A DNA stretch of 64,000 nt from a virus (Duplodnaviria > Caudoviricetes), in the IMG/VR virus record IMGVR_UViG_3300037067_018091, positions 23,700 to 87,699 of that record. The stretch is one strand, 5' to 3'. Numbering within the stretch: position 1 is the stretch's first letter; the number at the start of each line of letters is the position of its first letter. Of the stretch, positions 32,033-56,481 are shown one piece after another. The position numbers and the translations under genes are program-made. Under the pieces are notes generated by a model. It had not been told where the DNA came from. It did no database searches and saw only the letters and a program-made list of their open reading frames with translations.

Positions 32033-32045
32033 TGAGGTAAAAGTT

Positions 32046-34990: not shown

Positions 34991-36259
34991 TTGGAGAAGC
35001 TTGTGAAGATATTATGGATTTCTGATAATCCGTCTAGTAACAGCGGTTACGGTAAAATCACTGCACAAACAGTTCGGCATTTAAAATCTCAAGGACATGA
35101 AATACTATTAATGGCGGGCGGCGCTCCGTTTTATAACATACCTTTTCAAGAACAGGCTTGGGAAGGTTGCCGTCTATGGTTGGTTGCAGATTATGGTAAT
35201 GCTGAACAAATAAGATATTTTTTGAATGTTGAAAAACCAGATGTCGTAGTTGCAAATGCTGATCCGCGATTTTTTGATTATCTTTTCAAATTAGATAATG
35301 AAATCCGCCGCGTTTGTCCCCTTGTTTTCTATCATCTCTGGGATGATGGACCTTTCCCAAAATTTAATGTTCCTTACTATAATAGTTGCGATCATATTAT
35401 AGCGGGATCAAAATTTACATACGAATTACTTCGTGCGAACAGTACTCCCGATACCATGCTTTCCTATGCCCCGATTGGATTTGATTCAAGTACATATCAT
35501 CCAATTTCAAAAGATGAAGTTATTGAATTTAGACAACAATTTAATCAACTTACAAATTTTGAACATGTCGATGCAAAATTTATCGCCGGTGTCGTTGCCC
35601 GCCACTCAGAGCGGAAAAATTTGTTAAGTATTATGGAGTCTTTTACAAAGTGGGCCGAAGGAAAGAAGGATGTCTTGCTTTTTGTTCATTCGCCTGGACA
35701 AGATGCGGGTCGTAGTCTTGAATACGCGATGAATAATATGTTCGCGGATAAAAAGATTATTTTAAGTAATGCTGCCCCACAGATGCAAAAGGACGATTTA
35801 GTTAATCGATTTTATAATTTTTTTGATGTAATTTTAAATCGTTCTACTGCAGAAGGTTTTGGAATGCCTATCGCAGAAGCGATGCTGGCGGGAACCCCAG
35901 CAATTACAATAGATTGTCCGGGACCTGCAGGATTGGTGGACGATTCTAATGGTTGGTTGCTTAAAACAGATGTAAAACCTTTGTTAAGTAATCAAGTTGT
36001 GCCGTTCATTTATAGTAGATATATAACGGACGAGAAATTTATTGCGGCATTAGATGAAGCATATAATAATCCAGTACTCCGTGAACAAAAGGCTGCAAAA
36101 TGTCGTCAGTTTATCATGGATAATTATTCTCTTAATGGGATGGTTAAGGGGATTGAAACGGCTTTACAAAAAGCAATTGCGAATTGGCGTAGATATCCTG
36201 AATTTACCGTTCATTCATTTCCTGCAGTTGAATTGAAGAAAGCAGAAACAACTGAATAA
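34991..36259 (+). CDS. Glycosyltransferase family 4 (GT-B)
   Basis: ILWISD..SGYG; STAEGFGMPIAEAMLAGTP; true start may be GTG at 35003. Confidence 0.9.
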   Translation: MEKLVKILWISDNPSSNSGYGKITAQTVRHLKSQGHEILLMAGGAPFYNIPFQEQAWEGCRLWLVADYGNAEQIRYFLNVEKPDVVVANADPRFFDYLFKLDNEIRRVCPLVFYHLWDDGPFPKFNVPYYNSCDHIIAGSKFTYELLRANSTPDTMLSYAPIGFDSSTYHPISKDEVIEFRQQFNQLTNFEHVDAKFIAGVVARHSERKNLLSIMESFTKWAEGKKDVLLFVHSPGQDAGRSLEYAMNNMFADKKIILSNAAPQMQKDDLVNRFYNFFDVILNRSTAEGFGMPIAEAMLAGTPAITIDCPGPAGLVDDSNGWLLKTDVKPLLSNQVVPFIYSRYITDEKFIAALDEAYNNPVLREQKAAKCRQFIMDNYSLNGMVKGIETALQKAIANWRRYPEFTVHSFPAVELKKAETTE

Positions 36260-36717
36260 TGGGTGCTTGGGGAACACGGTCATCCGAAAACGACGCTGTA
36301 CATGATCTGTTAAGCATGGCCGGCCGTAAGAATGCTCACTATGGGTTTGAGGATCCTGGAGAACTTACAAATGAACAGCTTGAGCAGTTTATTATGAATA
36401 GATTTGTAGTACCTTTACAACTTTCTAATGATGAAAAACATGTTCAAGCTGCGTTAGGCACTTTACGGAAACTTAATGAATTAATACATCCTATGCATTT
36501 TCTTGGATTAATAATTTGGGGATTTGATCGTGGCTGGACATTTAATAGAGATATTTTAACTATTGCAGATGAATCAAGTATGAAATTGATTTACGATCAA
36601 AATGAATGGTTTAGATATATTCATATGTGGGCGCATCCAAAAATTCGTCATTATCGACTTTTAAAAGAAATGTGCAAAATTAAACAAGCAATAAAGGAAA
36701 AGAATGATGGCAGATAA
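36259..36717 (+). CDS. Hypothetical protein with internal ExxVQxALG motif
   Basis: MGAWG..ENDAVHD N-terminus; DEKHVQAALGT. Confidence 0.6.
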   Translation: MGAWGTRSSENDAVHDLLSMAGRKNAHYGFEDPGELTNEQLEQFIMNRFVVPLQLSNDEKHVQAALGTLRKLNELIHPMHFLGLIIWGFDRGWTFNRDILTIADESSMKLIYDQNEWFRYIHMWAHPKIRHYRLLKEMCKIKQAIKEKNDGR

Positions 36718-37873
36718 AATTAAGGTTTTGTTCAAAGCCCCTTTTGCAGATTACAGCGGATATGCCACAATTGCTCGTAATTTGTTGATTCAACTCTATA
36801 AATTAGATAAATTTGATCTTTATCTTGAGCCAATTGTATGGATCAATTCTGGGAATCTTGAACTTCCCGAAGAAGAGAAGAAAATTATCGATGAACTTCT
36901 TGCAAAGTCTGTTCAAATTGATCCAACAGATAAAACTCTTATTCATTTTTCAATTGCAACTGAATTTTTTGGTGAAAAAAGTCCTTTTCGCAAAACAATT
37001 GGATTTACAATGATTGAGACTGATAAAACTGCGAACGGATGGGCGTGGAAATGTAATCAAATGGACGCAGTTTTTGTTCCATCCACGTTTTGCCTTGGCT
37101 CTTTTATGCAATCTAATGTCTCAGTGCCGATAAGAGTTGTACCGTTTGGGATTGATTTTGAAAAATATACGCCTGAGGGCGAAAAACTTCTTGATCTTCC
37201 TACAAAATTTAACTTTCTTACGGTTGGCCAATGGCTTCCACAAGGAGATCGTAAAAATATTATAGGCGTATTGCAAACTTTCTTGCATAATTTTAGAAAT
37301 AATCCAGATGTGGGATTAATTTTAAAGACTTATCACGTCGGCGCAGGAACTGTCGATAAATTGCAAATTGAAAATTCTATTCAACAAATTAGACAGCAAG
37401 TAGGTATTAAAAATAATGAAGGGCCCCAGATTTATTTAGTGCATGGTGCAATGAGTGAAGAAAATATGATCAAATTGTATCGTAATGCAGATGTATTTTT
37501 ACTCCCGACATGCGGTGAAGCTTGGGGAATGCCGTTAATGGAAGCTGCTGCGATGGGTCTCCCAATTATTACAACTCGAGGTACCGGTGCTGAAGCGTTT
37601 TTGAATGAAGAGCATGTGGTAATGGTTGATGCAGAATGGAAACCTATTGGAAATAGAATTTATTGGCCTCATGTTTATGAACATTATCAGCAATTGTTGA
37701 TTCCAAATATGGAAGAATTTGCCAGAATGGTTCATAGAGTTTATAAATATCCTGAAATGTCTAGAGAACAAGCAAAAAAGCAGCGGCTTGAAATGATTGA
37801 ACGTGGTTTTACTTGGAAGGCAGCCGCGGAACAACTTGCTGAGGCAATTGAGGATCTTAATGATGCGGAATAA
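36704..37873 (+). CDS. Glycosyltransferase family 4 (GT-B)
   Basis: APFADYSGYA; DRKNI; PTCGEAWGMPLMEAAAMGLP. Confidence 0.9.
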   Translation: MMADKIKVLFKAPFADYSGYATIARNLLIQLYKLDKFDLYLEPIVWINSGNLELPEEEKKIIDELLAKSVQIDPTDKTLIHFSIATEFFGEKSPFRKTIGFTMIETDKTANGWAWKCNQMDAVFVPSTFCLGSFMQSNVSVPIRVVPFGIDFEKYTPEGEKLLDLPTKFNFLTVGQWLPQGDRKNIIGVLQTFLHNFRNNPDVGLILKTYHVGAGTVDKLQIENSIQQIRQQVGIKNNEGPQIYLVHGAMSEENMIKLYRNADVFLLPTCGEAWGMPLMEAAAMGLPIITTRGTGAEAFLNEEHVVMVDAEWKPIGNRIYWPHVYEHYQQLLIPNMEEFARMVHRVYKYPEMSREQAKKQRLEMIERGFTWKAAAEQLAEAIEDLNDAE

Positions 37874-38150
37874 AATTAAGGATACTCCTAATTTTTATAA
37901 AGATATAGAATTCGGTATTAGAGATGTTGTCAAATTACTTCGAGACAACGGTATTAATACTACATGTTCTTGCGGCCATGAAATGTATGTCGAATTTGAA
38001 TGTTGTTCTTCGACTATGGTAGAGAATATTTATAATGTTTTATTTAACGCAGGATATCGTGGTTTTAGAATTAATTATGCTCTACAATGTCCTCCTGATG
38101 GGTTTGTTATACGGCGAGGAACAATTCTATTAAATAAATGGATGGAGTAA
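37860..38150 (+). CDS. Hypothetical protein with TCSCGH motif
   Basis: IEFGIRDVVKLLRDNGINTTCSCGH; ATG at 37860 chosen over track start 37797. Confidence 0.5.
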   Translation: MMRNKIKDTPNFYKDIEFGIRDVVKLLRDNGINTTCSCGHEMYVEFECCSSTMVENIYNVLFNAGYRGFRINYALQCPPDGFVIRRGTILLNKWME

Positions 38151-38151
38151 A

Positions 38152-38661
38152 TTGCAGAATAAAACTGTTTATTTAATGGTTGGGAATATCGGTACTGGAA
38201 AATCGACAACTGTTGCAAAATTAACTAAAGGAAATTTAGATAAAATTGCGGTTCTTGATACAGATGGACTTGCAATGATGTATTCTGCAAATGATTATGG
38301 ACCGCATATTTGGACTGCCGAACGTAGAAATTTATATCGTACTTCTTTGTTAAAACTTGAAGATTTAGCATTACAAAAAGGGTTTGATGTTATCGTAGAT
38401 AGTACCGCAATGTCTCGAGAATGTCGAAAATCTTTTATAGATATTGCAAAAAATAACGGTGCGCGGATAGTAGTATATCTTCATCGTACTCCAGGAGGAT
38501 TAGAGAGACGGTGTCAGGAACCACGCGGCCAAACACGTGAACTTTGGACAATAGTATATGAAGGATTTGAAAATGAGTTTGAAGAACCTTCATTAGATGA
38601 AGGAATTGATGAAATAATTAATTGTACGCGGGTGTATCATAATCATGGGATTAAATCTTAA
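38152..38661 (+). CDS. P-loop kinase (polynucleotide-kinase/AAA_33-like)
   Basis: GNIGTGKST; VIVDSTAMSRECRK; EEPSLDEGIDE. Confidence 0.75.
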   Translation: MQNKTVYLMVGNIGTGKSTTVAKLTKGNLDKIAVLDTDGLAMMYSANDYGPHIWTAERRNLYRTSLLKLEDLALQKGFDVIVDSTAMSRECRKSFIDIAKNNGARIVVYLHRTPGGLERRCQEPRGQTRELWTIVYEGFENEFEEPSLDEGIDEIINCTRVYHNHGIKS

Positions 38662-39004
38662 AAAGAACTCCAAAAAAGATGGCGAATGGTACGGTTGCGA
38701 CCTCGATGGAACTTTGGCATACCACGATAAGTGGGGCGGAATTGAACATATTGGTAAGCCGATTCCTAAAATGCTTGAAAGAGTTAAAAAATGGATTTCT
38801 GAGGGAAAGACTGTAAAAATATTTACGGCTCGCGCTGCAGAAGGTCCTGAAGCAATCAAATATGTCGAAGATTGGCTTGAAGAAAATGGTATTGGTGGCC
38901 TTGAAGTTACGAATAAAAAAGATTTTAAACTTGTTGAACTTTGGGATGATCGAGTAGTTCAAGTTAAGAAAAATACTGGCGAACGAGTTGATGGAAAAGA
39001 GTAA
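38645..39004 (+). CDS. HAD-family phosphatase (PNK 3'-phosphatase-like)
   Basis: CDLDGTLA; IFTAR; LWDDR. Confidence 0.8.
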   Translation: MGLNLKKNSKKDGEWYGCDLDGTLAYHDKWGGIEHIGKPIPKMLERVKKWISEGKTVKIFTARAAEGPEAIKYVEDWLEENGIGGLEVTNKKDFKLVELWDDRVVQVKKNTGERVDGKE

Positions 39005-39006
39005 AT

Positions 39007-39177
39007 ATGGGTTTGATTTTACCTCCAGAAGCAAGTATATATTTTCATAAAATGACTGCAAAAGAGTTGGGTATTTCAGAAGATGAATATAAAATTCAAG
39101 ATGCATTAGGATTAATTTCTTCGGTTATAGGGGTTGATTGGGGTATAAGTGACAATGGGCATGATTTTACCACCTAA
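39007..39177 (+). CDS. Small ExxIQxALG-family protein (56 aa, below cutoff)
   Basis: Translated by hand: MGLILPPEASIYFHKMTAKELGISEDEYKIQDALGLISSVIGVDWGISDNGHDFTT. Confidence 0.65.
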   Translation: MGLILPPEASIYFHKMTAKELGISEDEYKIQDALGLISSVIGVDWGISDNGHDFTT

Positions 39178-39316
39178 GATTTATAAACGGCCGATGACTG
39201 CAGACGAAATGGGCATTTCGGAAGATGAATATAAAATTCAAGAAGCATTGGGAATAATTCCTAAAATTGAAATGGTTAAATATCTTGGTAAAAGTCGAAA
39301 GTTGGTTCGAAAATGA
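39161..39316 (+). CDS. Small ExxIQxALG-family protein (51 aa, below cutoff)
   Basis: Translated by hand: MILPPKIYKRPMTADEMGISEDEYKIQEALGIIPKIEMVKYLGKSRKLVRK; ATGA-coupled to 39313. Confidence 0.7.
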   Translation: MILPPKIYKRPMTADEMGISEDEYKIQEALGIIPKIEMVKYLGKSRKLVRK

Positions 39317-39684
39317 TTTGGATAATTATATCAATTATTTTGTTGTGTATAATTTTGCATCCGCTTCAAAAGACTTTATCGTTAAGTTGGGATAAAAAGA
39401 ATACTCTTTGGGGAAATTTTGAAACTTTTATCTCTATTGTAAAACATGAAGATAGAGACATTGATTTCACATTATCAATACATCCACAATACTTCAGTTT
39501 TCAGTTTTCTTTATGGTTCGTCGCGGCAGGAATTTTTTGGAGTATGCATGGAACCCATTTAGATTGTGAACGAGATCAGGGAGAAACCGCTGCTATTGAA
39601 TTATTGAAAAGAGTATTGCAAGAAGAAAAGAATTCTTTAGAATTAACTAAAGATATTACAATTTATCTACAAAGAAAAGAATAA
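39313..39684 (+). CDS. Hypothetical membrane-anchored protein
   Basis: Hydrophobic N-terminus MIWIIISIILLCIIL. Confidence 0.55.
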   Translation: MIWIIISIILLCIILHPLQKTLSLSWDKKNTLWGNFETFISIVKHEDRDIDFTLSIHPQYFSFQFSLWFVAAGIFWSMHGTHLDCERDQGETAAIELLKRVLQEEKNSLELTKDITIYLQRKE

Positions 39685-40481
39685 TGAAAATCTCTATTTT
39701 GATCCCTACTTTAGATAATCCCGATTACGTCGAATTAGTTACAAACGCATTTCGAAAAAATACGACTAATCCATTTGAAATTCTTGTATTTGCAAATAAT
39801 ATATCTAAACAGATGAAAGAGTTAGCAAATAAATTACAATTTGATTATTTTAATGGATCGGATAAAAATAAAGGTGTTGCAGAAGCAACTAATTTTTTGG
39901 CAAAATATGCAACAGGTGATATAATATTTTATGTCGGTGACGATGTTTATTGTGTTCCTAAGTGGGATGAGATTTTAATTACAAAAATGAATCCCGAAAT
40001 ACGTTATCAATATCTTACAGGAGTTATGTTTGGGCCAACGCATAAAAATCCAATGATGCATGCACCTATTTTTTATGGTAAAACTTCGAAACAATGGAAA
40101 GAGAATGAAGAAAAATTTTTAAAAGAATGGCGTGATAGACGAACAATTAAACAAGATATAATTAGTATTTTAGGCCCAGTATTTATCCGGAAAGAATTGT
40201 GGGATGAAATTGGGGGATTCGATGAAAAATTTTATCCTGGTTTTGGGACTGATCCAGATTTAATTGCGAAAATTTATTTTGCGGCAAAAAAGAAAAATGT
40301 TCCATATGAGTTTAGAGGAGTTTGTGATTGTGGAATGTATCATTTTGAATGTATAGGAACTACTAAAATACCTGAGGGGCATGGGATTCGCAGGGATGTA
40401 CACCACGTATTTCGTAAAAAATGGGGATTATTTCCATTAGAATTACAAGCAAAATTAGGATGCGGGAAACCAATTGATTAG
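39684..40481 (+). CDS. Glycosyltransferase family 2 (GT-A)
   Basis: MKISILIPT; YVGDD; GGFDEKFYPGFGTD. Confidence 0.85.
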   Translation: MKISILIPTLDNPDYVELVTNAFRKNTTNPFEILVFANNISKQMKELANKLQFDYFNGSDKNKGVAEATNFLAKYATGDIIFYVGDDVYCVPKWDEILITKMNPEIRYQYLTGVMFGPTHKNPMMHAPIFYGKTSKQWKENEEKFLKEWRDRRTIKQDIISILGPVFIRKELWDEIGGFDEKFYPGFGTDPDLIAKIYFAAKKKNVPYEFRGVCDCGMYHFECIGTTKIPEGHGIRRDVHHVFRKKWGLFPLELQAKLGCGKPID

Positions 40482-41469
40482 AATTCTTACACATTATGCT
40501 CATGAAAGTTATCAACAAGCACTTTCTAAAATTCCAGGAGTAGAATTTTACCATGTTATCGATTCTACTGGTGTTTGGCCCGCAGATAAAAAACCTAAAT
40601 TTATTTGGCCTGAAAATGTAAGTAAACCTGATAATATAAAAGGTATTGAAGCGCGCGATATTAGAATACAGGATTTTGATTTAGTTCTTATTCACTGGCA
40701 CCCATTTATAGAGACGTTTAGTAATCTTTGGGGCGATCTTCCAGTTATCTTTCTAGAGCATACATGGCCAAAAAATAATCATCCGGGTGAAATAAACCAT
40801 TGGAAAAACGTGCGTCATGAATTTGTAGATCATACAGTATTTATTACGCTATCTTCTAAAAAAGCTTGGGACTATGAACACGATGAGAATTCTTCTTATA
40901 TTTACCATTCAATTGATGTAGATGCTTTTCCAAAGAAGATTTTGTACGATAGTAAAACAATAATGACTACTACCAACGAATTTATTACGCGCGATTGGGC
41001 ATGTGGATTTACTTTTTGGGCGAATGTCTTAGGTCTTTCTGGAAAACCTTATTTTCCAAAAGATCAAATTCAATTGTTTGGATACGGAAACGATAATATT
41101 AAACCATATGCAAAAGGACGTCGTAGTCGTGAAGAAGTTTTAGATTTATTAGTAAACGCTGGTGTATATTTTAACCCTTCCCAAATGTCGCCTATACCGA
41201 TGTCATTATTAGAAGCGGCTGCTGTAGGGACGCCAATTGTTTCAACTGCAAAATGTGAAGTAGGTAGATTATTTAAAAATAAAATTCATGGAATTATTTC
41301 AGATGACATCGTTGAACTTCGTTGTGGTATAAAAGAATTATTAAATCATCTCGAACACGCAAAAGTAATGGCTGAAAACGCGCGTGAAGTAGTACAAGTT
41401 AATTTCAGTCCTGAAAAATTTCAAGAAAATTGGTTGAAAGTATTTAAAAAGGTTATGTATGACAAATAA
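40474..41469 (+). CDS. Glycosyltransferase family 4 (GT-B)
   Basis: YFNPSQMSPIPMSLLEAAAVGTPIV. Confidence 0.8.
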   Translation: MIRILTHYAHESYQQALSKIPGVEFYHVIDSTGVWPADKKPKFIWPENVSKPDNIKGIEARDIRIQDFDLVLIHWHPFIETFSNLWGDLPVIFLEHTWPKNNHPGEINHWKNVRHEFVDHTVFITLSSKKAWDYEHDENSSYIYHSIDVDAFPKKILYDSKTIMTTTNEFITRDWACGFTFWANVLGLSGKPYFPKDQIQLFGYGNDNIKPYAKGRRSREEVLDLLVNAGVYFNPSQMSPIPMSLLEAAAVGTPIVSTAKCEVGRLFKNKIHGIISDDIVELRCGIKELLNHLEHAKVMAENAREVVQVNFSPEKFQENWLKVFKKVMYDK

Positions 41470-41893
41470 TTTTAAAAGCCGGAAATTTTGGACACTTATT
41501 GTAGTGTACATAGCTTCGTTAGGGTTAACTTTAGGAAAACCCGCGTTAATTGATTCAACTACTGTATTATTTAATTTTTGGACGATGATTGCAGGGATTT
41601 TCTTTGGGACAGATATTTATGGTGGATATCAAACTGCAAAAAATAACGGCGGCGACCTGCTTGATTATGGAATTCAAAGTAAAAAATTTATAGTTTTTCT
41701 AGGACTTTTATTCACATCATTTATTCTCACATGGGTGGGTAAAGTTGAATCCGCAGCAGATTTATTTACTTTTTGGGGACAGCTTTGCGGGCTATATTTT
41801 ACTGGAAACGTTGTAGAAAAACAACTTAAAGGGCGTGCACAACGAGTTTCTAAAGCATTTAAAGAACAGAGCGCCAAAATCCCGATTGATTAA
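41459..41893 (+). CDS. Four-TM membrane protein with duplicated halves, holin candidate
   Basis: FKSRKFW..FNFWTMIAGIFFG and IQSKKFI..FTFWGQLCGLYFTG; basic C-tail. Confidence 0.45.
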   Translation: MTNNFKSRKFWTLIVVYIASLGLTLGKPALIDSTTVLFNFWTMIAGIFFGTDIYGGYQTAKNNGGDLLDYGIQSKKFIVFLGLLFTSFILTWVGKVESAADLFTFWGQLCGLYFTGNVVEKQLKGRAQRVSKAFKEQSAKIPID

Positions 41894-41921
41894 ATAGGAG
41901 TATCCCGCTCTTAATTAACTG

Positions 41922-41951
41922 CAGGTACCTGGAAGAAATTTCAGGTACCTG
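41922..41951 (+). terminator. Hairpin with GAAA tetraloop built from two CAGGTACCTG palindromes
   Basis: CAGGTACCTG-GAA-GAAA-TTT-CAGGTACCTG; followed by TTGTATAAT (TATAAT at 41955-41960). Confidence 0.6.
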
Positions 41952-41967
41952 TTGTATAATATATTGT

Positions 41968-42954
41968 ATGCGCATAGCGATAATTGGAAATACAAATGAT
42001 GCTTCCCAAAATGGTATAAGAATTGGGCAAGCGTGGACTCTACAACGGCATAACGTTAGAAATTTTCCTTTTAGTCCTCAATCAATTGAACAAATTTTAA
42101 AATTTCGCCCTGCTTTTTGTTTAACTACGCAAGGGCGCACATTTGATCATAATGCCTTAAATCAACTTAAAAATGTAGGAATTTATTTAGTTCAATGGAT
42201 TCCAGACGAATACGGGCCAGGAGATTCTCCCGGAGGCCTTTGGTTTGATCGTATAAAAGGAATTTATAATCTTGCATTAGTAGAAACAAAAGGAATTATT
42301 CCAAAACTTAAAGAAGGAAATTATTTCGGTGATGTTATCTGGGCGCCTCAATTTTTTGATCCCCGGTTTCATGGTAATTATGAAAAGCGCCTGCAATATT
42401 ATGAGAATTCTGATTTAGGTTTTGTTGGAGGGGTAAATTTAGAACAATCTACAGTTCGATTAGAGTTTTTACGTAAATTACTTAAAGATGAATATAAATT
42501 AAAAATTGCAGGTGGCACCCAATGGCTCTGGGGAGGAATTGCAGGGATAGATCCTGATTTTCCGTTGGATAAATTTATTGGTGAAGGAGTTCTTGTAGGC
42601 CCCGATCTGGCAAAATTTTTCTTGCGGGTTAAAATTAATTTAAATTTTGTAAATGATTTATTGCCGCAATATGAATTGGGACTATCTAATCGAGCATTTA
42701 AGTGTATTGGATCAGGCGGGTTCTTGTTAACACAGGCTGTAGAGGGCTTGGAAAACATGCTTATACCTGGGGAACATTGCATAACTTATGCTCCCACGAG
42801 TTATGAAGACCTGATTGAAAAAATTAAGTATTTCCTCAAACATGAAGATAAAAGAGAGCAAATTGTTCGTCGGGGCCAGAAACACGTTCTTGAAAATTAT
42901 AGTATAGATAAGATTACCAAGGGTTTTATTGATGAAATATCAAAAAGAATATGA
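41968..42954 (+). CDS. CgeB-like glycosyltransferase (Glyco_trans_1_2 type)
   Basis: LGFVGG; KINLNF..SNRAFKCIGSGGFLLT..YFLKHEDKREQI. Confidence 0.8.
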   Translation: MRIAIIGNTNDASQNGIRIGQAWTLQRHNVRNFPFSPQSIEQILKFRPAFCLTTQGRTFDHNALNQLKNVGIYLVQWIPDEYGPGDSPGGLWFDRIKGIYNLALVETKGIIPKLKEGNYFGDVIWAPQFFDPRFHGNYEKRLQYYENSDLGFVGGVNLEQSTVRLEFLRKLLKDEYKLKIAGGTQWLWGGIAGIDPDFPLDKFIGEGVLVGPDLAKFFLRVKINLNFVNDLLPQYELGLSNRAFKCIGSGGFLLTQAVEGLENMLIPGEHCITYAPTSYEDLIEKIKYFLKHEDKREQIVRRGQKHVLENYSIDKITKGFIDEISKRI

Positions 42955-43237
42955 AATTCAACGCGCTCTCGGAACTTTACCTATTTTTATAGTTGAACGT
43001 AAAGATTGTAAATATGTACATAGAGAAAATGATTTATTTTCCTTAGTAGACAAAAAGGGAAGTAAGACATGGCTTTTAAAAGCGATAACAAAGGCGATTA
43101 GTCCTATAGATGCAATTGATCGTATAATAAAGAAGTATAACTTTTCTGAAGAAGCGCGACAACATTTACACGCATATAGATATATAGTTGGACATGATAA
43201 AGATAACGATGCTTGGATTAATGGCGACGACGATTAA
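42929..43237 (+). CDS. Small ExxIQxALG-family protein
   Basis: MMKYQKEYEIQRALGTLP. Confidence 0.65.
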   Translation: MMKYQKEYEIQRALGTLPIFIVERKDCKYVHRENDLFSLVDKKGSKTWLLKAITKAISPIDAIDRIIKKYNFSEEARQHLHAYRYIVGHDKDNDAWINGDDD

Positions 43238-43481
43238 AATGTATGAAATTTTTTTCAAATATGATGATTCTTGGAATGAGTTAGAAATTCTTGAATTGGT
43301 ACAAATTATTCAAAGAATTTTAGGGCTTAAAGAAAGTCTTTCCGTAGAAAGAACTTTAAACTCTGAAATGATAATTCCTGTACGAGTAGATTCTAATGAG
43401 GATATTCAAAAACTTCTCGATAAGATTAATAAAACGGTAATGATGGCAGAACCTTATAAGATTGAGTATCGTAAACAATGA
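43221..43481 (+). CDS. Hypothetical protein
   Basis: Fills gap, ATGA-coupled to 43478; start uncertain (43221 or 43239). Confidence 0.5.
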   Translation: MATTIKMYEIFFKYDDSWNELEILELVQIIQRILGLKESLSVERTLNSEMIIPVRVDSNEDIQKLLDKINKTVMMAEPYKIEYRKQ

Positions 43482-43726
43482 CCGAAGAAGAATTTGAAGT
43501 TCAAAAAGCATTAGGGCCCTTGAGACACTTCGCTGTAAGGATTCCTCGAGATTTGAGTCCAAATACTGGACAGGTTTATTATAAATATGTTATAGCGATT
43601 AACGAAAAAGATGCTATAAATCGAGCTTGTAGCGAGTGGCCAGAGTTAGCACTTTATAAGTTAGGATTAGTTGCGCATGGATATTATGTTAAAGATAATG
43701 GGCAGATGCATTGGGAGAGTATATGA
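43478..43726 (+). CDS. Small ExxVQxALG-family protein
   Basis: MTEEEFEVQKALGPL. Confidence 0.65.
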   Translation: MTEEEFEVQKALGPLRHFAVRIPRDLSPNTGQVYYKYVIAINEKDAINRACSEWPELALYKLGLVAHGYYVKDNGQMHWESI

Positions 43727-43745
43727 AAGCAAAATACGTAAAACC

Positions 43746-44045
43746 ATGCGTATAAAAAATAAAATGATTGAAAATAAAATTAAAGATTTTGGAGAAGCAC
43801 CTAAAACATTAAAAAATTCTTTTCTTACAGAGGAAGAGTTTGAAGTACAAATGGCATTAGGTGCATTAGAATGGTTTCAATTTTTTGATGAAAATGAAGT
43901 AGATGATTCTGGAATGGGTGATGGGCCTTTTCTTGTTTGGGCGACTACTTATGAACAAGCCTTACAGGTCTACATGAAAGATCATGGTAATTGTCGCGGA
44001 TTATCATGTGCGCGACATAAAAATGGATGGGTTCGATTATGGTAG
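43746..44045 (+). CDS. Small ExxVQxALG-family protein
   Basis: LTEEEFEVQMALGAL; start uncertain. Confidence 0.6.
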   Translation: MRIKNKMIENKIKDFGEAPKTLKNSFLTEEEFEVQMALGALEWFQFFDENEVDDSGMGDGPFLVWATTYEQALQVYMKDHGNCRGLSCARHKNGWVRLW

Positions 44046-47605: not shown

Positions 47606-48552
47606 TATTTTTATGTCTTGCGGATTTTGCTGCTTCTGCTTATAATGCATGCCAGGCAGTTAATCGTGTTGGACAGATTGAAGCACATCATATAGTACTT
47701 TCTCAACCTCCTTACGATTTTCCTGCAGAAGTTATTTGTCCTCTTATGTATAAAAAAATTGATCCAACTACTGCAATTAATTACAGTAAAGTTAAAGAAT
47801 TGATTGATAAAGCAGATTTAATTCATTGTTGGAATAACGAACGTGAAGGATTTCCGCTTTTTGCTAACCTTCAAATCCCATATAAAAAAGTTAAGTCGTA
47901 CACGTTTACGGGCACTAGTTATAGAATTGGACATACGGTCGCAAATCAAAATATTCGAAATTATCGTGATGGATCCAGAGTAATTGTGCAGGATCCTTTA
48001 TTTTTAAAATATTTGAATGAATTTCCCGTTGAATATATTCCACATGCGGTTGATACTGATTTACTTAAACCTAATAAAGATAAGGTGCCTAATACAATAG
48101 GCTTCTATAATAAAGCTGATCAAGAATATAAAAATTATATTCAATTGTTGAAACAATTACTCCAAAAGAGTTATTATCCAGAATGGAAAATGGTTGCAGG
48201 AACGACGGCATCTTGGTGGGATAGATTACAAGAATTATCTAGATGTATGTTTTTCTTTCAAAATTTATCTCAAACATTAGGAAATCCCGGACGATCTACT
48301 TGGGAAGCAATGGCAATGGGCGTACCGACGTTTACATATATAAGTCCTGATGTGTTTAAATTAACTTCTCGGTTTGATGGTATACCTGTCCAATCTGTAA
48401 CTGTTTCAACATTAGAAAATGTTTTAAAAATAGTATTAAATTGTACGGACTACTCACAATTATCTAAAAATTCACGTGAATGGGTCATAAACAATTTAGG
48501 GTATACAAGAGTAGGTAAAGAATATACTAAATTGTTTGAAGATTTATTATGA
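47578..48552 (+). CDS. Glycosyltransferase, GT-B fold (GT4-like)
   Basis: YIPHAVDTDL; GNPGRSTWEAMAMGVP. Confidence 0.75.
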   Translation: MAENRKPVVVFLCLADFAASAYNACQAVNRVGQIEAHHIVLSQPPYDFPAEVICPLMYKKIDPTTAINYSKVKELIDKADLIHCWNNEREGFPLFANLQIPYKKVKSYTFTGTSYRIGHTVANQNIRNYRDGSRVIVQDPLFLKYLNEFPVEYIPHAVDTDLLKPNKDKVPNTIGFYNKADQEYKNYIQLLKQLLQKSYYPEWKMVAGTTASWWDRLQELSRCMFFFQNLSQTLGNPGRSTWEAMAMGVPTFTYISPDVFKLTSRFDGIPVQSVTVSTLENVLKIVLNCTDYSQLSKNSREWVINNLGYTRVGKEYTKLFEDLL

Positions 48553-48893
48553 ATAAAAAAGAAGAAAAAATACAAGAAGCTCTTGGAACCCTTCTTCAAG
48601 CAGCATGGCGAGAATATTTAAAAACTATAGATTCAATTAAAAATTTGCAAAAAGAAATTAATCGTATTCAAAGAATTATACGATTCATAGCTAAATGCAA
48701 TAGACTTACTGTAGAAGCACAACTTTTATGTGCAAGGACAATACAAATACAGACACATATCGAGAAGGTACAGATAGATGCCCGTGTAAATTTGTTAAAA
48801 ATTATTAAAAAGATTTATGGAAAAGATATTGTTGTACGTTTTATTAATAATTATTGTTGTAAACTTAGTAATGGGATTACATTAAAAAAATGA
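48549..48893 (+). CDS. Small ExxIQxALG-family protein
   Basis: MNKKEEKIQEALGTLL. Confidence 0.65.
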   Translation: MNKKEEKIQEALGTLLQAAWREYLKTIDSIKNLQKEINRIQRIIRFIAKCNRLTVEAQLLCARTIQIQTHIEKVQIDARVNLLKIIKKIYGKDIVVRFINNYCCKLSNGITLKK

Positions 48894-49678: not shown

Positions 49679-49687
49679 GGCATGTAA

Positions 49688-50656: not shown

Positions 50657-51573
50657 AAATTTTAATTACGGGTGGCACAGGTAGTTTAGGTTCGTGTATT
50701 GTAAATAGGTTGGTTAATGAAACCGATCATACTATTATTGTATTTTCTCGTGGCGAACAAAAACAGTTTCAGCAACGTTTAAAATATCAAAGTAATCTTG
50801 CAGTTGCAGATAAACAACAACGTATTTATTATGTTTTAGGAGATGTTTGTAATTCGAACGATGTTTTTAAAGTGTTTAATTTACACGCTCCGGATATTGT
50901 TATACACACTGCTGCACAAAAGCATGTTCGAATTTGCGATGAAAACCCTGAACAAGCGGTACGAACAAATATTTTAGGCACAATTAATGTTGCGGATGCA
51001 GCATTACAATATAATACTGTTATGTGCATGGTATCAACGGATAAAGCAGTAAATCCAACAACGTTGTACGGTATGACTAAAGCACTTGCTGAAAAACATC
51101 TTAATAATATTGCCATGCATCATCCAAAATTATTTTGCGGAGTTCGATATGGGAATGTACTTAATTCTGCCGGATCTTTAATTCCATTTTTTCGTGAAAA
51201 AGCAAAAATATCCGGGGATACTTTTTATGTCACCCATCGAGAAATGACTCGATTTTTCATTTCATTAGAAAAAGCGGTCGATTTAATTTGTCAAACTTTA
51301 ACTTATACTACAGGAAAGAAAGTATTCCCACATAAAACCATTGATTTATTTGGGACTGATGGTATATTTGTTATCCCAATGCTTAAATCGGTTAAAATTA
51401 TGCATCTTGCGGAATATTATGCAAAATTTAATAATGGTAGTATTAAGGTAATGCTTCCTTATCCTACAGAAAAGCTTCATGAAGAGATGATGACAAATTA
51501 TTCATCGAAAGATCATGTTATGAGTAAAAAATTATTAGAAAAAATGTTAGAAGAAGAAAATCTTTCAATATAA
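50653..51573 (+). CDS. NDP-sugar 4,6-dehydratase (PseB/FnlA/CapD family)
   Basis: ITGGTGSLG; HTAAQKHV; STDKAVNPTTLYGMTK; RYGNVLNSAGS; MTRFF. Confidence 0.9.
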   Translation: MKILITGGTGSLGSCIVNRLVNETDHTIIVFSRGEQKQFQQRLKYQSNLAVADKQQRIYYVLGDVCNSNDVFKVFNLHAPDIVIHTAAQKHVRICDENPEQAVRTNILGTINVADAALQYNTVMCMVSTDKAVNPTTLYGMTKALAEKHLNNIAMHHPKLFCGVRYGNVLNSAGSLIPFFREKAKISGDTFYVTHREMTRFFISLEKAVDLICQTLTYTTGKKVFPHKTIDLFGTDGIFVIPMLKSVKIMHLAEYYAKFNNGSIKVMLPYPTEKLHEEMMTNYSSKDHVMSKKLLEKMLEEENLSI

Positions 51574-51574
51574 G

Positions 51575-51745
51575 ATGACTGAAGAAGAAGAGAAAATACA
51601 AGTTGCGCTCGGTACTGGACAATATTGTATTGAGTGTAAAAAAATGTTATTAGTTACAAATTTAAATAATAGTGCAATTTGTAATTCATGTTTAATCAAT
51701 GGCCCTATTTGCAACTTACAAAAATATTTAAATGGTTTAGCATGA
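51575..51745 (+). CDS. Small ExxIQxALG-family protein with Cys pairs (56 aa, below cutoff)
   Basis: Translated by hand: MTEEEEKIQVALGTGQYCIECKKMLLVTNLNNSAICNSCLINGPICNLQKYLNGLA; ATGA-coupled to 51742. Confidence 0.7.
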   Translation: MTEEEEKIQVALGTGQYCIECKKMLLVTNLNNSAICNSCLINGPICNLQKYLNGLA

Positions 51746-52866
51746 TTCCACTTTTTAAAGTATATATGCCGGCCACTGCAGGTTATTTAGTGCAGAAAGT
51801 TATGTACTCAGGATATTTAGCTGAGGGGAAATGCGTTCAATCTTTTGAAGACGAACTAAAAAAGTTTTTAAAATGCGATAATGTAATTACAGTTAATTCT
51901 TGTACAAGTGCAATTCATCTCGCGTTAAAATTATTTGGAGCAAGTGAATTTAATAATTATGTATTATCAACTCCGGTAACATGCGTGGCTTCAAATGCTT
52001 CAATTGTTAATCTTGGCGCAACACCTATTTGGGTTGATGTAGATCCTAAGCATGGCATGATTACTTCTAAAACTCTTCGCAGAGCATATAATGAATGTCG
52101 TTATAAAGGATTAGATTTTAAAATTGCGGCACTTATATATGTATGCTGGGGCGGTGACATCGGGCCACTTAAAGAAGTTTCAGAGGTATGTAAAGAATTG
52201 GGGATTCCACTAATCGTAGATGCGGCACAAGCTTTTGGAGGAATTCCAAAAAATTTGGCAGATATTATATGCTATTCATTCCAAGCTATAAAGCATATTA
52301 CAACGGGTGACGGTGGCGCAATGCAATTTAAAGATACAGATTTAATGCAACGTGCAATTAACCTTAAATGGTTTGGAATTAATAGGGACAGCTTTAGAAC
52401 ATCGAACGGTGAAATTAATTGGTCATCGGATATACCAGAAATTGGATTTAAATTTCATATGAATAATATTGCTGGAGCGATTGGAACGACACAACTTCAA
52501 GATTCGATATTAAAATCGCGCCTTCGTAGTTATAATAATAATGATGTATTTTTAACTAATTCTTTACGAGGTATTTTAGAGCGTTCTTGGACGGGGGCGT
52601 CGACTTCTTGGGTATCTACATTTCTTTGTGAAGATCCAATTCAATTGATGGAATATTTAAATAAATGTAAAATACATACATCGCAAATGCATATCAATAA
52701 TAATATTTATACGGGATTTAACGATGCGCGTACGCTCACTCCTCTTACGGGCGCTGAAGAATTTATGCAACACCATATTTGTATTCCATGTGGTTGGTGG
52801 TTGAAACCTGAAGATCTTACATATATTATAAAAACGGTGAAAAATTTTTATGGCAAATCCATTTAA
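51742..52866 (+). CDS. DegT/DnrJ/EryC1/StrS PLP-dependent sugar aminotransferase
   Basis: MIPLFKV start (ATGA coupling, preferred to track 51688); NSCTSAIHLA; VDAAQAFG; SFQAIKHITTGDGG. Confidence 0.92.
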   Translation: MIPLFKVYMPATAGYLVQKVMYSGYLAEGKCVQSFEDELKKFLKCDNVITVNSCTSAIHLALKLFGASEFNNYVLSTPVTCVASNASIVNLGATPIWVDVDPKHGMITSKTLRRAYNECRYKGLDFKIAALIYVCWGGDIGPLKEVSEVCKELGIPLIVDAAQAFGGIPKNLADIICYSFQAIKHITTGDGGAMQFKDTDLMQRAINLKWFGINRDSFRTSNGEINWSSDIPEIGFKFHMNNIAGAIGTTQLQDSILKSRLRSYNNNDVFLTNSLRGILERSWTGASTSWVSTFLCEDPIQLMEYLNKCKIHTSQMHINNNIYTGFNDARTLTPLTGAEEFMQHHICIPCGWWLKPEDLTYIIKTVKNFYGKSI

Positions 52867-53638
52867 AGATATGGAACGAAAATATCAAGAAAGTTTTCGT
52901 ATACAAATTGATTGGGCATCTCTCTCAAATGAACGGTCGATAGAAGTACCGTGGCTTCTTAATCGTTTAAAAACAATTAAACCCGGAACACTTTTAGACG
53001 TTGGGTTTGCGGGAAGTTTTTATCAAAATGAAATTTTAGATTTAGGAATCGATTATACCGGTCTAGATTTCGATCTTTCCCGAATAACTGGACAATCTCT
53101 TTACGTCGGCGCCGATCGAAAATCTGCGTGGAAAGAATTGATTAAACGATTTAAATGGATTCAAGGGGATATAGTTAATTTACCTGAGGAACTTGCGCAA
53201 CAACAATTTGATATAGTTATGGCCATTTCAACAATAGAACACATTGTTCCCGCAGGATACGCATCAAATTATGAGAATTTCCAGGCTGATCTTAAAGCTG
53301 TTGCCAATATGAAGACTTTAGTTAAAAAAGATGGGAGTTTACTGTTAACTTTTCCGGTCGGGAAAACTGCGTATTTCTTTAATCCGGATATAAATCGAAA
53401 TACAGAAATTTTACGTAAAACGGGCAAGTTTAAAGAAGGCGTCCATGATCAAATGTTTTACGACTCAGGACGTATTAAACAAATAGTCGGTGATTGGACA
53501 ATTGTAGAGAAAAAATTTTACAAAAAGGACGATAAACAGTGGAATGAATGCTCCGAAGAAGCCGCATGTTCTGTTGAACATTTAACGTCGGAAGCAACCA
53601 CAGTTTGTTTATTGGAAATTAAAAATGAAACAACGTAA
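52850..53638 (+). CDS. Class I SAM-dependent methyltransferase
   Basis: RSIEVPW; LLDVGFAGS; ISTIEHI; LVKKDGSLLLTFP. Confidence 0.75.
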   Translation: MANPFKDMERKYQESFRIQIDWASLSNERSIEVPWLLNRLKTIKPGTLLDVGFAGSFYQNEILDLGIDYTGLDFDLSRITGQSLYVGADRKSAWKELIKRFKWIQGDIVNLPEELAQQQFDIVMAISTIEHIVPAGYASNYENFQADLKAVANMKTLVKKDGSLLLTFPVGKTAYFFNPDINRNTEILRKTGKFKEGVHDQMFYDSGRIKQIVGDWTIVEKKFYKKDDKQWNECSEEAACSVEHLTSEATTVCLLEIKNETT

Positions 53639-54464
53639 GTTATGGGCAGGGCCATGGGTAGGTGAGTTCGGGTGGGAACTATTTTGTTGGCAAGCATATT
53701 TACGTAAAATTGCCAAACAATACGATCACATAACTGTTTGTTCACGCCCTGGAAAAGAATTTCTTTATCAAGATTTTGCACATAAATTTTTACCTTTTAC
53801 CCCGCCCTCAGAAGACGTTACGATGTGGGCGAATTATGGTTTAGATGAAAATTATATAAATAGAATATTTGCTCCTCCTTTAGATACTACTTGGTTGGAT
53901 CCCCGAAAATTTCTTTCGGCCTTGTTGCAAGAACGTAAAAAACTTTCAGGTCTTACGGTTTTAGAGATGTTTACGCCACCCGATCAAGAATTTATCTCTT
54001 ACGGGAATCCAAATAAAGATAAAGCATTTGATATTGTCATTCATGCGCGGAATCGTACGGATAAAAAAGCATGGCCTGAGAAAAATTGGCCAATAGAAAA
54101 TTGGGATGCTTTAGTTGCGCATTTTAGTAATATGCGTATCGCATGCGTAGGACATCTATCAGCATCTAATGGCATAGATGGAACAATTGATTTACGCGGT
54201 ATTCCATTAAATGAGGTAGCTGATATTCTCGCCAGTAGTAAACTTTGTGTAGGTTGTTCTGATGGACTTTTAAATTTTGCAGCTTTATGTAAAACACCTA
54301 GATTAATTTGGACAATTAAATCTGAAGCAGAAAAGAATATAGATAGACACAGTAAATGCTGGAATCCTTTTAATGTGCCCGTACAAATGATTGTGCATGA
54401 TACTTGGCGCCCATCCCCATTACAAGTTATTAAAGCAATTGAGGAATATTTTGAACAAAGCTGA
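53625..54464 (+). CDS. GT9-like (heptosyltransferase-like) glycosyltransferase
   Basis: GEFGWE; KNWPIENWDAL; IDLRGIPLNEVADILASSKLCVGCSDGLLNFAALCKTP. Confidence 0.65.
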   Translation: MKQRKLWAGPWVGEFGWELFCWQAYLRKIAKQYDHITVCSRPGKEFLYQDFAHKFLPFTPPSEDVTMWANYGLDENYINRIFAPPLDTTWLDPRKFLSALLQERKKLSGLTVLEMFTPPDQEFISYGNPNKDKAFDIVIHARNRTDKKAWPEKNWPIENWDALVAHFSNMRIACVGHLSASNGIDGTIDLRGIPLNEVADILASSKLCVGCSDGLLNFAALCKTPRLIWTIKSEAEKNIDRHSKCWNPFNVPVQMIVHDTWRPSPLQVIKAIEEYFEQS

Positions 54465-54717
54465 ATATGAAGTACAAAAAGCGCTTGGACTTATGCATGA
54501 GTGGGATGTGTTTGCACGGTTTCAAAAAGATTCTTTTTATACTGTTTATGAAGTTGAGGCGCCAACAAAAGATATTGCACTTGCTTTAGGTTATGAAATT
54601 ATTTTAAAGCAAGGGTGTAAAATAAGTAGACAAGTAAATGGTACGTTTGCTATATTTGTCGAGGCGCGTTGTTTAAAAAGAATGGAAGGCTCTAAAGTTG
54701 CAAAAAAGCCCTATTAA
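54451..54717 (+). CDS. Small ExxVQxALG-family protein
   Basis: TTG start after GAGGA gives MNKAEYEVQKALGLM. Confidence 0.6.
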   Translation: MNKAEYEVQKALGLMHEWDVFARFQKDSFYTVYEVEAPTKDIALALGYEIILKQGCKISRQVNGTFAIFVEARCLKRMEGSKVAKKPY

Positions 54718-56170
54718 ATTAATTATAAAATCTCTTGGGGCCAAACTCGTGGTTTTGGACAACAGTTATCCATACTTAACTGAGTTATGGGGATATTTAG
54801 ATAGTTTTCTATCTTATGAAATACATAATAATTTTTTTATTAAAGCCATGAGTGGAAATTCTTGGGTTAGAGACACGTGGGACGGCCGGAAACATTTGTT
54901 TAATTCTCAAACCGGGGTTTTTCCAACAGGACTTTTACCTTATGTACTTGAAGGATTAAAACAATATAATATTCCATATGATGTGGAAGATTTACGACCG
55001 AAATATAATTGTGGAACAACTATTCCTACAGAAGATTTGTTGCCCAGAAATTATCAAGAAGATGCCGTTAAGCTTGCGATGGATAATAAACGGGGTATTA
55101 TTTGGGCGCGGCCAAGATCCGGCAAGACGATTTGTGAAATTATGTTAGTTTCGCGACTTGCAATATTTCCGGTACTTAGTATTTGTCAAAGTATTGATAT
55201 TGCAAAACAAACAAAAGAAAAATTTGTAAAATTTCTTCCAAGTGTCAAAGTGGGCATTATTGGGGATGGTGAATGTGATATTCAAGACATAACAATTACG
55301 ACTATACAATCGCTGGCGGCGGCGTATGATATTCAGGAAAAGATTCCTAAAAAAGAACAAGAACGTACCCCAATGCAACAAAAAAAGGTATTAATTCAAC
55401 AGTTAGTCGAAAGTGCAAAATTTGTATGGGTCGACGAATGTCATCATGCAGTATCAAATACGCATAAATTTATTTTACAAAATAAATGTTATTCGGCAGA
55501 ATATATTTTAGGATGTTCTGGGACGCCTTTTCGTGAAGATAATACAAATTTATTAATGGAAGGATTATTAGGACCTATAATATATGAAATCAATTACAGC
55601 AGATTAATTAACGACGGATTTTTGGTGCAACCTACAATTCATCTTATTAAAATTCCAAAAACATTGAGTATTTCCGATGATGAACCATTCGCGACACTTT
55701 ATAAACAAGCAATTACTGAAAACGATTTTCGTAATGATATAATTTCAAATATTGTGTCCAATTTGTCTAAACGCGGTAAAAGTTGCATGATTTTAGTGAA
55801 CAAAATTAAACATGGTGAAGAATTAGTTAAAAAAATTCCGGGGGCTAAATTTTCTCAAGCAAAATCTAAAGATAGAGCATCATTGTGGCATCAGTTACGT
55901 GTTAAACAATTAAAAGTTTTGATAACAACTCTTGGGGATGAAGGAATTGATATACCTTCATTAGATGCAACAATCATTGCCGCCGGCGGCGAATCAGCTA
56001 TAAAGGTTTTTCAACGCCTTCGATGTTTAACCCCATTTAAAAATAAACAACACGCAATAGTGGTTGATTTTTTGGACCCTTATAAATATTTACGGAGTCA
56101 TAGTAAGAAACGAGAACGTTTATATAGAAGTGAACCTAGTTTTAAAGTTGTGTATAGAAAAACAAAATGA
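54698..56170 (+). CDS. Superfamily 2 helicase (UvsW/DEAD-like)
   Basis: PRNYQEDA; ARPRSGKT; VDECHH; SGTP; EGIDIPSL; QRLR. Confidence 0.9.
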   Translation: MQKSPIKLIIKSLGAKLVVLDNSYPYLTELWGYLDSFLSYEIHNNFFIKAMSGNSWVRDTWDGRKHLFNSQTGVFPTGLLPYVLEGLKQYNIPYDVEDLRPKYNCGTTIPTEDLLPRNYQEDAVKLAMDNKRGIIWARPRSGKTICEIMLVSRLAIFPVLSICQSIDIAKQTKEKFVKFLPSVKVGIIGDGECDIQDITITTIQSLAAAYDIQEKIPKKEQERTPMQQKKVLIQQLVESAKFVWVDECHHAVSNTHKFILQNKCYSAEYILGCSGTPFREDNTNLLMEGLLGPIIYEINYSRLINDGFLVQPTIHLIKIPKTLSISDDEPFATLYKQAITENDFRNDIISNIVSNLSKRGKSCMILVNKIKHGEELVKKIPGAKFSQAKSKDRASLWHQLRVKQLKVLITTLGDEGIDIPSLDATIIAAGGESAIKVFQRLRCLTPFKNKQHAIVVDFLDPYKYLRSHSKKRERLYRSEPSFKVVYRKTK

Positions 56171-56481
56171 CAGAACAAGAAAAACAAATACAAATTGCAT
56201 TAGGAACATATTTACCATATATGTGGAAAGAATGCGAACAATTGTTTACTGAAGGTCTTATTCGTTTTGATGAAGCTAAAAAATTAGATAGTGTCGCCAT
56301 GGATTTCACACCTTTGGGGGATAAACTTATTATCGAAGGCCGTATATTGTATACGCAAGGAATGCAACTTTATATAGATGCAGTAAATGAAGTTTATGAA
56401 AAGAAAGAAGTTGAAATTAATTGGGCTAATGGCGAACTGGTAAAAGCAACAAAAGCAACAGTAGTAAAAGAAGTTAAATAA
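56167..56481 (+). CDS. Small ExxIQxALG-family protein
   Basis: MTEQEKQIQIALGTYL. Confidence 0.65.
   Translation: MTEQEKQIQIALGTYLPYMWKECEQLFTEGLIRFDEAKKLDSVAMDFTPLGDKLIIEGRILYTQGMQLYIDAVNEVYEKKEVEINWANGELVKATKATVVKEVK

Follow-up and report, generated by a model that had tools for sequence, protein, structure and literature searches.

A short, predicted helical tag shared by many small-protein families in a clade of phage-G-related huge phages

Why do ten small open reading frames (ORFs) of one phage share the peptide motif E-x-x-[IV]-Q-x-A-L-G? The question is raised by a 64-kb stretch of viral DNA, here called the window, which covers bases 23700-87699 of a linear 87.7-kb IMG/VR contig (G000; CheckV completeness estimate 30%). 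We found that the motif is the core of a 15-residue unit, the tag, which is constrained as a peptide, precedes or joins many different protein bodies, and marks one clade of phage-G-related huge phages. The reading we favour, at slightly less than an even chance, is that of a portable docking helix whose conserved face is read by one common partner; the existence of that reader is something we infer.

The motif in the window

The ten motif copies reported in the first-pass annotation were all found, all on the + strand (the positions quoted there are ORF starts). A looser form, Q-x-A-L-G, returned the same ten copies only in the six frames of the 64-kb window; the whole contig contains 17 Q-x-A-L-G and one Q-K-S-L-G. 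Shuffling the contig 100 times gave 0.48 ± 0.74 Q-x-A-L-G (maximum 4) vs. the 17 observed, which speaks strongly against chance as the source of the motif frequency. The codons used by the different copies vary synonymously (Ala GCT/GCA/GCG, Leu TTA/TTG/CTC/CTT, Gly GGN), and the DNA 5' of the tagged genes is not conserved. What is constrained is therefore the peptide, rather than a DNA/RNA element or a DNA repeat. Seven of the ten ORFs have orthologues in the syntenic Logan contig L009 (about 55-73% amino-acid identity), with ratios of nonsynonymous to synonymous substitution (dN/dS) of 0.24-0.54. We concluded that they are real coding genes. The ten ORFs are as follows (positions in the window; dN/dS values are those against L009).

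36259..36717, + strand: 152-aa ORF; internal motif at residues 59-67 (nt 36433-36459) with L-S-x-x ahead of it, as in the N-terminal copies; dN/dS 0.27; no Pfam or PHROG match
39007..39177, + strand: 56-aa ORF; motif at residues 27-35 (nt 39085-39111); tandem paralogue of the 39149 ORF
39149..39316, + strand: 55-aa ORF; motif at residues 27-35 (nt 39227-39253); dN/dS 0.28; the true start may be an internal ATG (M-T-A-D-E-M...)
42929..43237, + strand: 102-aa ORF; N-terminal tag at nt 42947-42973; predicted alpha/beta tail; dN/dS 0.52
43478..43726, + strand: 82-aa ORF; N-terminal tag M-T-E-E-E-F-E-V-Q-K-A-L-G at nt 43490-43516; dN/dS 0.33
43671..44045, + strand: ORF of at most 124 aa; motif at nt 43836-43862; dN/dS 0.24; start uncertain, as the sequence reads F-L-T-E-E-E-F... 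with no standard start codon four residues before the E
48549..48893, + strand: 114-aa ORF; N-terminal tag at nt 48561-48587; helical tail; dN/dS 0.54
51575..51745, + strand: 56-aa ORF; N-terminal tag at nt 51587-51613, then a zinc-ribbon-like CxxC...CxxC; dN/dS 0.37
54451..54717, + strand: 88-aa ORF with a TTG start; N-terminal tag at nt 54463-54489; alpha/beta-like tail
56167..56481, + strand: 104-aa ORF; N-terminal tag at nt 56179-56205; member of a 'G-T-Y-L-P-x-x-W-K-E' Lys-rich repeat family

The motif falls within the first 15 residues in six ORFs (42929, 43478, 48549, 51575, 54451, and 56167), and three ORFs (39007, 39149, and 51575) are below the 60-aa cutoff of the ORF track, both as first described. 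It was also correct that no tagged gene lies in the structural module (window 1-36000), and the same was found for the structural blocks of two related contigs, G001 and G004. The description of the ten proteins as unrelated was somewhat overstated. Their tails have no significant BLAST similarity (best E 0.08), but some kinship exists: the 39007 and 39149 ORFs are tandem paralogues, and the 42929, 43478, and 54451 products (perhaps also 43671) align with metagenome relatives to one tag-strand-strand-helix architecture. Tagged CxxC proteins resembling the 51575 product are also encoded upstream in the contig, and the Lys-rich repeat family of the 56167 product has 20 members, which in metagenome contig L080 form tandem arrays with as many as 7 copies. 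Pfam and PHROG scans of the ten proteins returned nothing significant, a homologue search with the 82-aa protein found one relative only besides itself, and megablast of the region against GenBank phages gave no match. The surroundings of the tagged genes (window 34991-54464) include about eleven glycosyltransferase genes together with epimerase/dehydratase, aminotransferase, acetyltransferase-like, and methyltransferase genes; this island is syntenic in L009, and related glycosyltransferase genes are present in a few other tag-bearing metagenome contigs (e.g. L061 and L077).

The tag unit and the proteins that bear it

The phage is a myovirus, with a sheath gene at window 8251-9654 and an HK97-type major capsid protein gene at 1954-2943. 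Its closest relative in culture is Bacillus phage G, with a capsid protein that is 38% identical; Tunturiibacter phage Tunturi_5 and an uncultured 485-kb phage come next. The motif is not enriched in these relatives: phage G has 3 pattern matches vs. 1 for the control, and the others are at control level. No phage in culture is known to bear the tag. A 38-bit DNA pattern encoding M-T-x-[KE]-E-x-x-[IV]-Q-x-A-L-G matched only three other contigs in IMG/VR, namely G001 (130 kb), G003 (59 kb), and G004 (54 kb), which have 18, 17, and 12 tagged ORFs, respectively. Each of the four contigs thus carries 12-18 copies, and the sheath proteins of G000 and G001 are only 64% identical. The same pattern was present in at least 119 metagenome contigs, many with multiple matches and up to 7 tandem copies in 2.9 kb. 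Prokaryote genomes (596 Gb) gave 7 sites vs. roughly 4 expected by our own arithmetic from the information content of the pattern, and two of the seven are on tiny phage-like contigs of metagenome-assembled genomes (MAGs). Two MAG contigs of 2-3 kb with tagged LRV genes were binned as Bacteroidales and Zixibacteria and may be mis-binned phage DNA. A 40-residue N-terminal profile matched 312 clusters (50% identity, E ≤ 0.001) among 1.84 billion representatives; among the best 149 of the 312, the motif was present in 146 and N-terminal in 133. A word-indexed search with the 40-aa profile gave 14 weak matches only and was uninformative. The metagenomes containing DNA of this phage are from groundwater and landfill, and no RNA sequencing run is listed as containing it. 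No description of such a motif was found in the literature, and neither Pfam nor PHROG has a family for the tag.

We gathered 359 instances by regular expression from the contig, the three related IMG/VR contigs, and the metagenome contigs. They define a 15-residue unit, [M/L/I]-[T/S]-x-K-E-h-x-[I/V]-Q-x-A-L-G-[T/S/L]-[L/I], and about 80% of the copies are N-terminal. Among the 190 instances outside the DNA pattern used for collection, 125 are N-terminal, 13-16 sit at the very C-terminus, and 52 have an internal or unclear position. The start codon is exactly four residues ahead of the Glu in 89 of the 125 N-terminal instances. The C-terminal copies occur in at least three unrelated families and end with a stop 2-3 residues past the Gly (..Q-V-A-L-G-S-L, ..Q-K-A-L-G-L-L, ..Q-I-A-I-G-S-I); this sets the C-terminal limit of the unit. 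At position 2 after the Gln, residues vary and are often charged (L 17%, I 16%, K 13%, Y 12%, and R 9%). Alpha-helices can be capped by a hydrophobic staple and an S/T-x-x-E capping box at the N-end, and by a Gly-based (Schellman-type) cap at the C-end. The tag pattern can be read as such a helix in minimal form, capped at both ends and with positions +3 and +10 (the Glu being position 0) in hydrophobic contact, and AlphaFold2 predicts a helix over exactly the tag residues in two families.

Tagged proteins have a median length of 99 aa, and tagged genes are clustered, successive tags being a median of 385 nt apart. The region upstream of the tagged genes is A-rich and has no conserved promoter and no strong Shine-Dalgarno sequence; of 227 tagged genes, only 54 had a Shine-Dalgarno-like sequence at -20 to -5. 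Such upstream regions point, tentatively, to a host that makes weak use of Shine-Dalgarno sequences.

When the proteins were grouped into families by the similarity of their tails, the tag was kept by 122/144, 21/22, 20/20, 10/11, 8/9, and 7/7 members, among others, and the 19-residue tag region is 54-82% identical vs. 28-63% for the tails. The tag is thus more conserved than what follows it, in agreement with the proposal that the motif is a shared peptide module held at the protein level. No genome-specific switch of core residues was seen among the four contigs; the one exception is position -1, which is less strict in G000. Plotted as a helical wheel, the residues that all families conserve (A+6, K-1, L/I+10, I/V+3, L+7, E0, Q+4, T-3, and G+8) fall on one arc of about 200 degrees (240-80 degrees). 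The other face (-2, +1, +2, and +5; 100-200 degrees) is hydrophobic in LRV families and variable in non-LRV families. Because the universal face differs from the face that is hydrophobic in LRV proteins, it is not explained by family-specific packing, and from the sequences it would appear that something beyond such packing constrains it.

The bodies behind the tag are diverse. BLAST separated 279 tails into at least 107 distinct clusters, of which 76 are singletons, and this bears out the view of a shared motif on otherwise unrelated small proteins that turn over fast. LRV/HEAT-like repeats form the largest cluster (94/279); one member, L157:366-1133, which is not among the ten window proteins, matched Pfam LRV (PF01816) at E 9.2e-50, above the gathering score. 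Nearly all non-LRV clusters lack a Pfam family. Recognizable tails include zinc-ribbon-like CxxC pairs, Lys-rich G-x-K-L repeats, small alpha/beta bodies, winged helix-turn-helix (wHTH)-like bodies with a C-terminal tag, a NADAR-tag-helical fusion, and in-frame double tagged LRV genes. Copies at domain junctions arise via such fusions (NADAR-tag-helical P0071; double LRV proteins P0075-77).

Could the tagged proteins simply be one ordinary paralogous family? An alpha/beta architecture may be common to three or four of the window members, and the LRV group makes up a third of the tails, both of which would fit a single family. The tails, however, are BLAST-distinct and differ in fold: they include an all-alpha solenoid, an alpha/beta fold, zinc ribbons, Lys-rich repeats, wHTH-like and NADAR bodies, and a primase. 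With the shuffles standing against chance and synonymous variation excluding a DNA repeat, we consider an explanation by chance, a DNA repeat, or one ordinary family highly improbable.

Several side observations were made on individual tails. Marine-sediment contigs encode the in-frame fusion of a NADAR domain with a tagged helical-repeat protein (P0071; also L035:1315-1686:-). NADAR enzymes reverse ADP-ribosylation, and the fusion hints at a counter-defence role for some tagged proteins. Small proteins (65-125 aa) ending in the tag are encoded in tandem at L058:3-795:+ and L036:845-1275:+. At least one of them carries a CxxxCxxC close to the N-terminal end and matches Radical_SAM weakly (E 1.8e-4); all are far too short for a complete radical-SAM enzyme. 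Upstream of the window, two tagged zinc-ribbon genes (contig G000 positions 4253 and 5998) begin within about 10 nt of tRNA 3' ends, in tRNA-rich surroundings that also contain HNH genes.

Predicted structure and spread of the tag

The AlphaFold2 model of an LRV family protein from L144 (69 sequences) had a mean predicted local distance difference test score (pLDDT) of 93 and a predicted template modelling score (pTM) of 0.85. The tag occupies residues 3-11 (pLDDT 96) and is modelled as the first helix of the solenoid. Residues 1 or 2 to 139 superposed on the HEAT-like alphaRep protein 3ltm_B with Z 13.1 (root-mean-square deviation 3.2 over 135 residues), and the match to 1lrv had Z 9.1. The model of the 82-aa window protein (13 sequences; pLDDT 79, pTM 0.67) places the tag in a helix at residues 3-12, followed by strand-strand-helix-helix-strand-strand. 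For this alpha/beta model, Foldseek returned nothing at E ≤ 0.001, the best Z in a VIA fold search was 4.5 (ribosomal proteins, T7 Gp2, and AcrIE2), which is within noise, and no fold was assigned. An ESM Atlas search with tag residues 1-22 matched LRV/HEAT clusters only, at scores of 0.81-0.84, below the 0.9 level and therefore a lead only. The tag start T-x-K-E-h resembles the repeat start T-P-K-E-[VI]-L in the same LRV proteins. This likeness and the N-cap place of the tag in the LRV solenoid make an N-cap helix of repeat proteins a plausible origin. The tag resembles the N-terminal capping helices of HEAT-like, LRV, and alphaRep proteins in being the first solenoid helix of the largest tagged family; it differs from them in its presence on non-repeat folds and at C-termini as well, and in being far more conserved than the repeats.

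How a tag can pass to another gene was seen in G001. Its primase, a DnaG-type core (DNAG_N + Toprim, no zinc-binding domain), has the tag at its start, whereas 47 orthologues (46-79% identity) are untagged and begin just past the position where the tag ends. In L176, an 84-aa tagged alpha/beta gene (L176:2750-3004) lies between the metallophosphatase and primase genes. In G001, the body of this 84-aa gene is gone and its tag is in frame with the primase. We concluded that tags can pass to a neighbour gene by deletion of the body behind a retained start. The tagged primase had been considered as a clue to a role at the replisome; this was rejected, given the untagged orthologues and the origin of the tag in a deleted upstream gene. 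In this clade the DnaG primase is split: a 231-aa CHC2-only protein (window 59375-60070) adjoins DnaB, and the primase core is a separate gene (DNAG_N + Toprim, about 220 aa; G001 L167:6084-6800:-) without zinc-binding and helicase-binding domains.

Gene gain and loss was also apparent over the 20 kb that are syntenic between L009 and G000, where two tagged genes are present in L009 only and a tandem duplicate in G000 corresponds to a single copy in L009. Internal tag copies are explained by tandem gene fusions. The first-pass annotation had suggested that the motif is the trace of a cassette-shuffling mechanism; the primase fusion gives this direct support, and the gain and loss of genes and the tandem fusions add to it. 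Polymorphic toxin and contact-dependent inhibition systems likewise combine a constant junction with exchangeable bodies, tandem variant arrays, and body replacement by recombination or deletion. The constant part here is 15 residues long and has no trafficking domain, and neither immunity genes nor toxin domains were recognized.

The tag would thus probably have arisen as the N-terminal capping helix of small HEAT/LRV-repeat proteins in one phage-G-related huge-phage clade, and would then have spread to more than 100 other small-protein families. The proposed route is that bodies are deleted or replaced behind the retained start codon and tag, of which one case is shown above, and that tandem genes fuse. 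Selection keeps the face K-1, E0, I/V+3, Q+4, A+6, L+7, G+8, and L/I+10 nearly invariant on any fold.

The main rival of a docking role is an intrinsic starter or cap helix with no common reader: a very stable, doubly capped helix that would serve as a generic N-terminal (at times C-terminal) cap or folding nucleus and be kept via body swaps behind the start and tag. AlphaFold2 fits the tag into two different folds, and in alphaRep HEAT-like solenoids it is the N-terminal helix with which the tag aligns; one deletion of a body behind a retained tag is documented, the arrays of tagged genes are dense, and most of the conserved positions match textbook capping motifs. A generic helix, however, tolerates many sequences, yet E, Q, A-L-G, and I/V hardly vary among the more than 100 tail families and between the four diverged genomes. 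Nor is the universally conserved face the one that is hydrophobic in LRV proteins, and the invariant Gln has no obvious capping role. We regard the purely intrinsic helix as possible, if on balance doubtful.

Possible readers of the tag and other features of these genomes

In the docking reading that we favour, the conserved face is a putative common docking or address epitope, with the procapsid interior, phage HEAT-like binders, or a host hub as candidate partners. The presence of the tag outside N-terminal contexts, at the C-terminal ends of three unrelated families and at fusion junctions, was counted in its favour. Several points weigh against it. No reader was found, and ORF clustering of the 127 tag-bearing contigs gave no candidate for a co-occurring reader gene. 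AlphaFold2 puts the tag helix inside the predicted fold (pLDDT 96 in LRV and about 80 in the alpha/beta family). Capping motifs answer the needs of an intrinsically stable helix, and the conservation can in part be accounted for without a partner. The tag is evidently not essential to the G001 primase, as 47 orthologues do without it. Finally, decayed tags are under-counted in an instance set gathered by regular expression.

A more specific form of docking, in which the tag is an address label for one receptor and roughly two genes per 10 kb are handled as a group, is tentative and in our view rather unlikely. Its most striking version would be an encapsulin-like cargo-loading signal in a true phage capsid; the alternative version is a 'helix-addition' handle onto phage HEAT-like binders. 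Contig L144 has wHTH-like genes (tag at the C-terminus) and LRV genes (tag at the N-terminus) in alternation, with overlapping stop and start codons. That tags dock on the phage's own HEAT-like proteins is an attractive idea.

Shared terminal tags on unrelated phage proteins are already known in kind, the capsid-targeting sequence (CTS) of phage T4 being the textbook case. What is new here is a helix-type, mostly N-terminal tag of unusual breadth, with documented transfer and a likely origin as a repeat-protein cap. The T4 CTS is N-terminal only and is removed by the prohead protease. It resembles the tag as a short conserved N-terminal peptide on diverse, fast-turnover small phage proteins (PMC3012670), with genes outside the structural module, and a conserved extreme N-terminal peptide on diverse small proteins is also what we found (125 of 190 instances N-terminal). 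The two differ in sequence, and the tag is also C-terminal or internal, is a predicted part of the fold, and is present in 12-18 genes per contig vs. a handful.

The T4 precedent raises the special case of a capsid-targeting or cargo-loading peptide, by which the tag would bind the inside of the procapsid (major capsid protein or scaffold) and the tagged proteins would be packaged and injected. The tag ends in A-L-G-[ST]-L, similar to the G-S-L found in encapsulin targeting peptides; the tails behind it are small and for the most part basic (median isoelectric point 9.0), and the HK97-type major capsid protein is related to that of huge phage G. In encapsulin targeting peptides, G-S-L is widely conserved (native PLTVGSLRRGG, consensus DGSLGIGSLKG; PMC7925596). 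They share with the tag a short terminal address on unrelated cargo and the G-S-L core; theirs are extended, mostly C-terminal, and followed by basic residues, whereas the tag has a capped helix ahead of G-[ST]-L. The likeness amounts to three residues, and the median isoelectric point is the same in background small ORFs. Further against capsid targeting, no tagged gene lies in a structural module, and the window structural module was found to contain no Q-x-[AS]-[LIVM]-G-like site as a candidate shared site for the prohead protease. A leader cleaved from the N-terminus is at odds with the C-terminal and internal copies, and a tag helix that is built into the fold, as in the AlphaFold2 models, further complicates it. 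Capsid targeting is unlikely in our judgement.

We also considered a recognition leader for a modifying enzyme, of the protein-tagging type or the type found in ribosomally synthesized and post-translationally modified peptides (RiPPs). RiPP precursors have one conserved leader and many variable bodies. The tag follows this logic of constant leader and variable bodies and offers modifiable residues (Thr/Ser, Lys, Glu, and Gln), and the glycosyltransferase genes of G000 are interleaved with the tagged genes. However, related glycosyltransferase genes are present on only a few other tag-rich contigs, the ORF clustering found no recurrent untagged enzyme family beside the arrays, and the bodies are folded domains of 50-150 aa rather than short cores. 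We judge this reading very improbable.

Less credible still is a sliding-clamp-binding motif, in which Q-x-A-L-G-[L/S]-L would mimic bacterial beta-clamp peptides and tether the proteins to the host clamp. The C-terminus of Pol IV is Q-L-V-L-G-L, and the tag shares with beta-clamp-binding motifs (QL[SD]LF and QLxLxL) a Gln-x-x-Leu-Gly-Leu-like core at protein termini, be they N- or C-terminal; the C-terminal copies end straight after G-L-L or G-S-L. It differs in its conserved helical upstream half, T-x-K-E-h-x-I, which has no counterpart in clamp motifs, and in the variable, often charged position 2. No DnaN or gp45-type clamp (PF00712, PF02916) was detected in the four contigs, which is weak evidence since they are fragments. 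G001 encodes a family-A polymerase, and polymerases of this family generally work without a clamp. The sole tagged replication enzyme, the G001 primase, got its tag by an accidental deletion.

Huge phages are rich in small orphan genes that offer no handle for study, and a 15-residue tag marks hundreds of them. If the docking reading is true, a common partner (capsid interior, host hub, or repeat proteins) would classify a large share of the accessory proteome at once. The exchange of bodies behind a retained start and helix is a concrete route to new small phage genes. A natural fusion or addressing tag is possible if the helix is autonomously stable and portable.

Other features of these genomes were noted. 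A 7-deazaguanine gene set comprises a PTPS/QueD-like gene (window 60706-61239), a FolE2 GTP cyclohydrolase gene (61067-62083; the two ORFs overlap), and a phosphoribosyltransferase gene (62330-62797), with a QueE-like candidate, judged from sequence alone, upstream of the window (contig G000 8446-9294). This set suggests that the DNA may contain modified bases. In G001, the DnaB-like helicase (915 aa; 64611-67358; L168) and the large terminase (1009 aa; 31118-34147; L166) greatly exceed the usual length, and each has an interrupted PHROG match, so that inteins or other insertions may be present. A GroEL-type chaperonin of 557 aa (E 4e-154) is encoded there as well.

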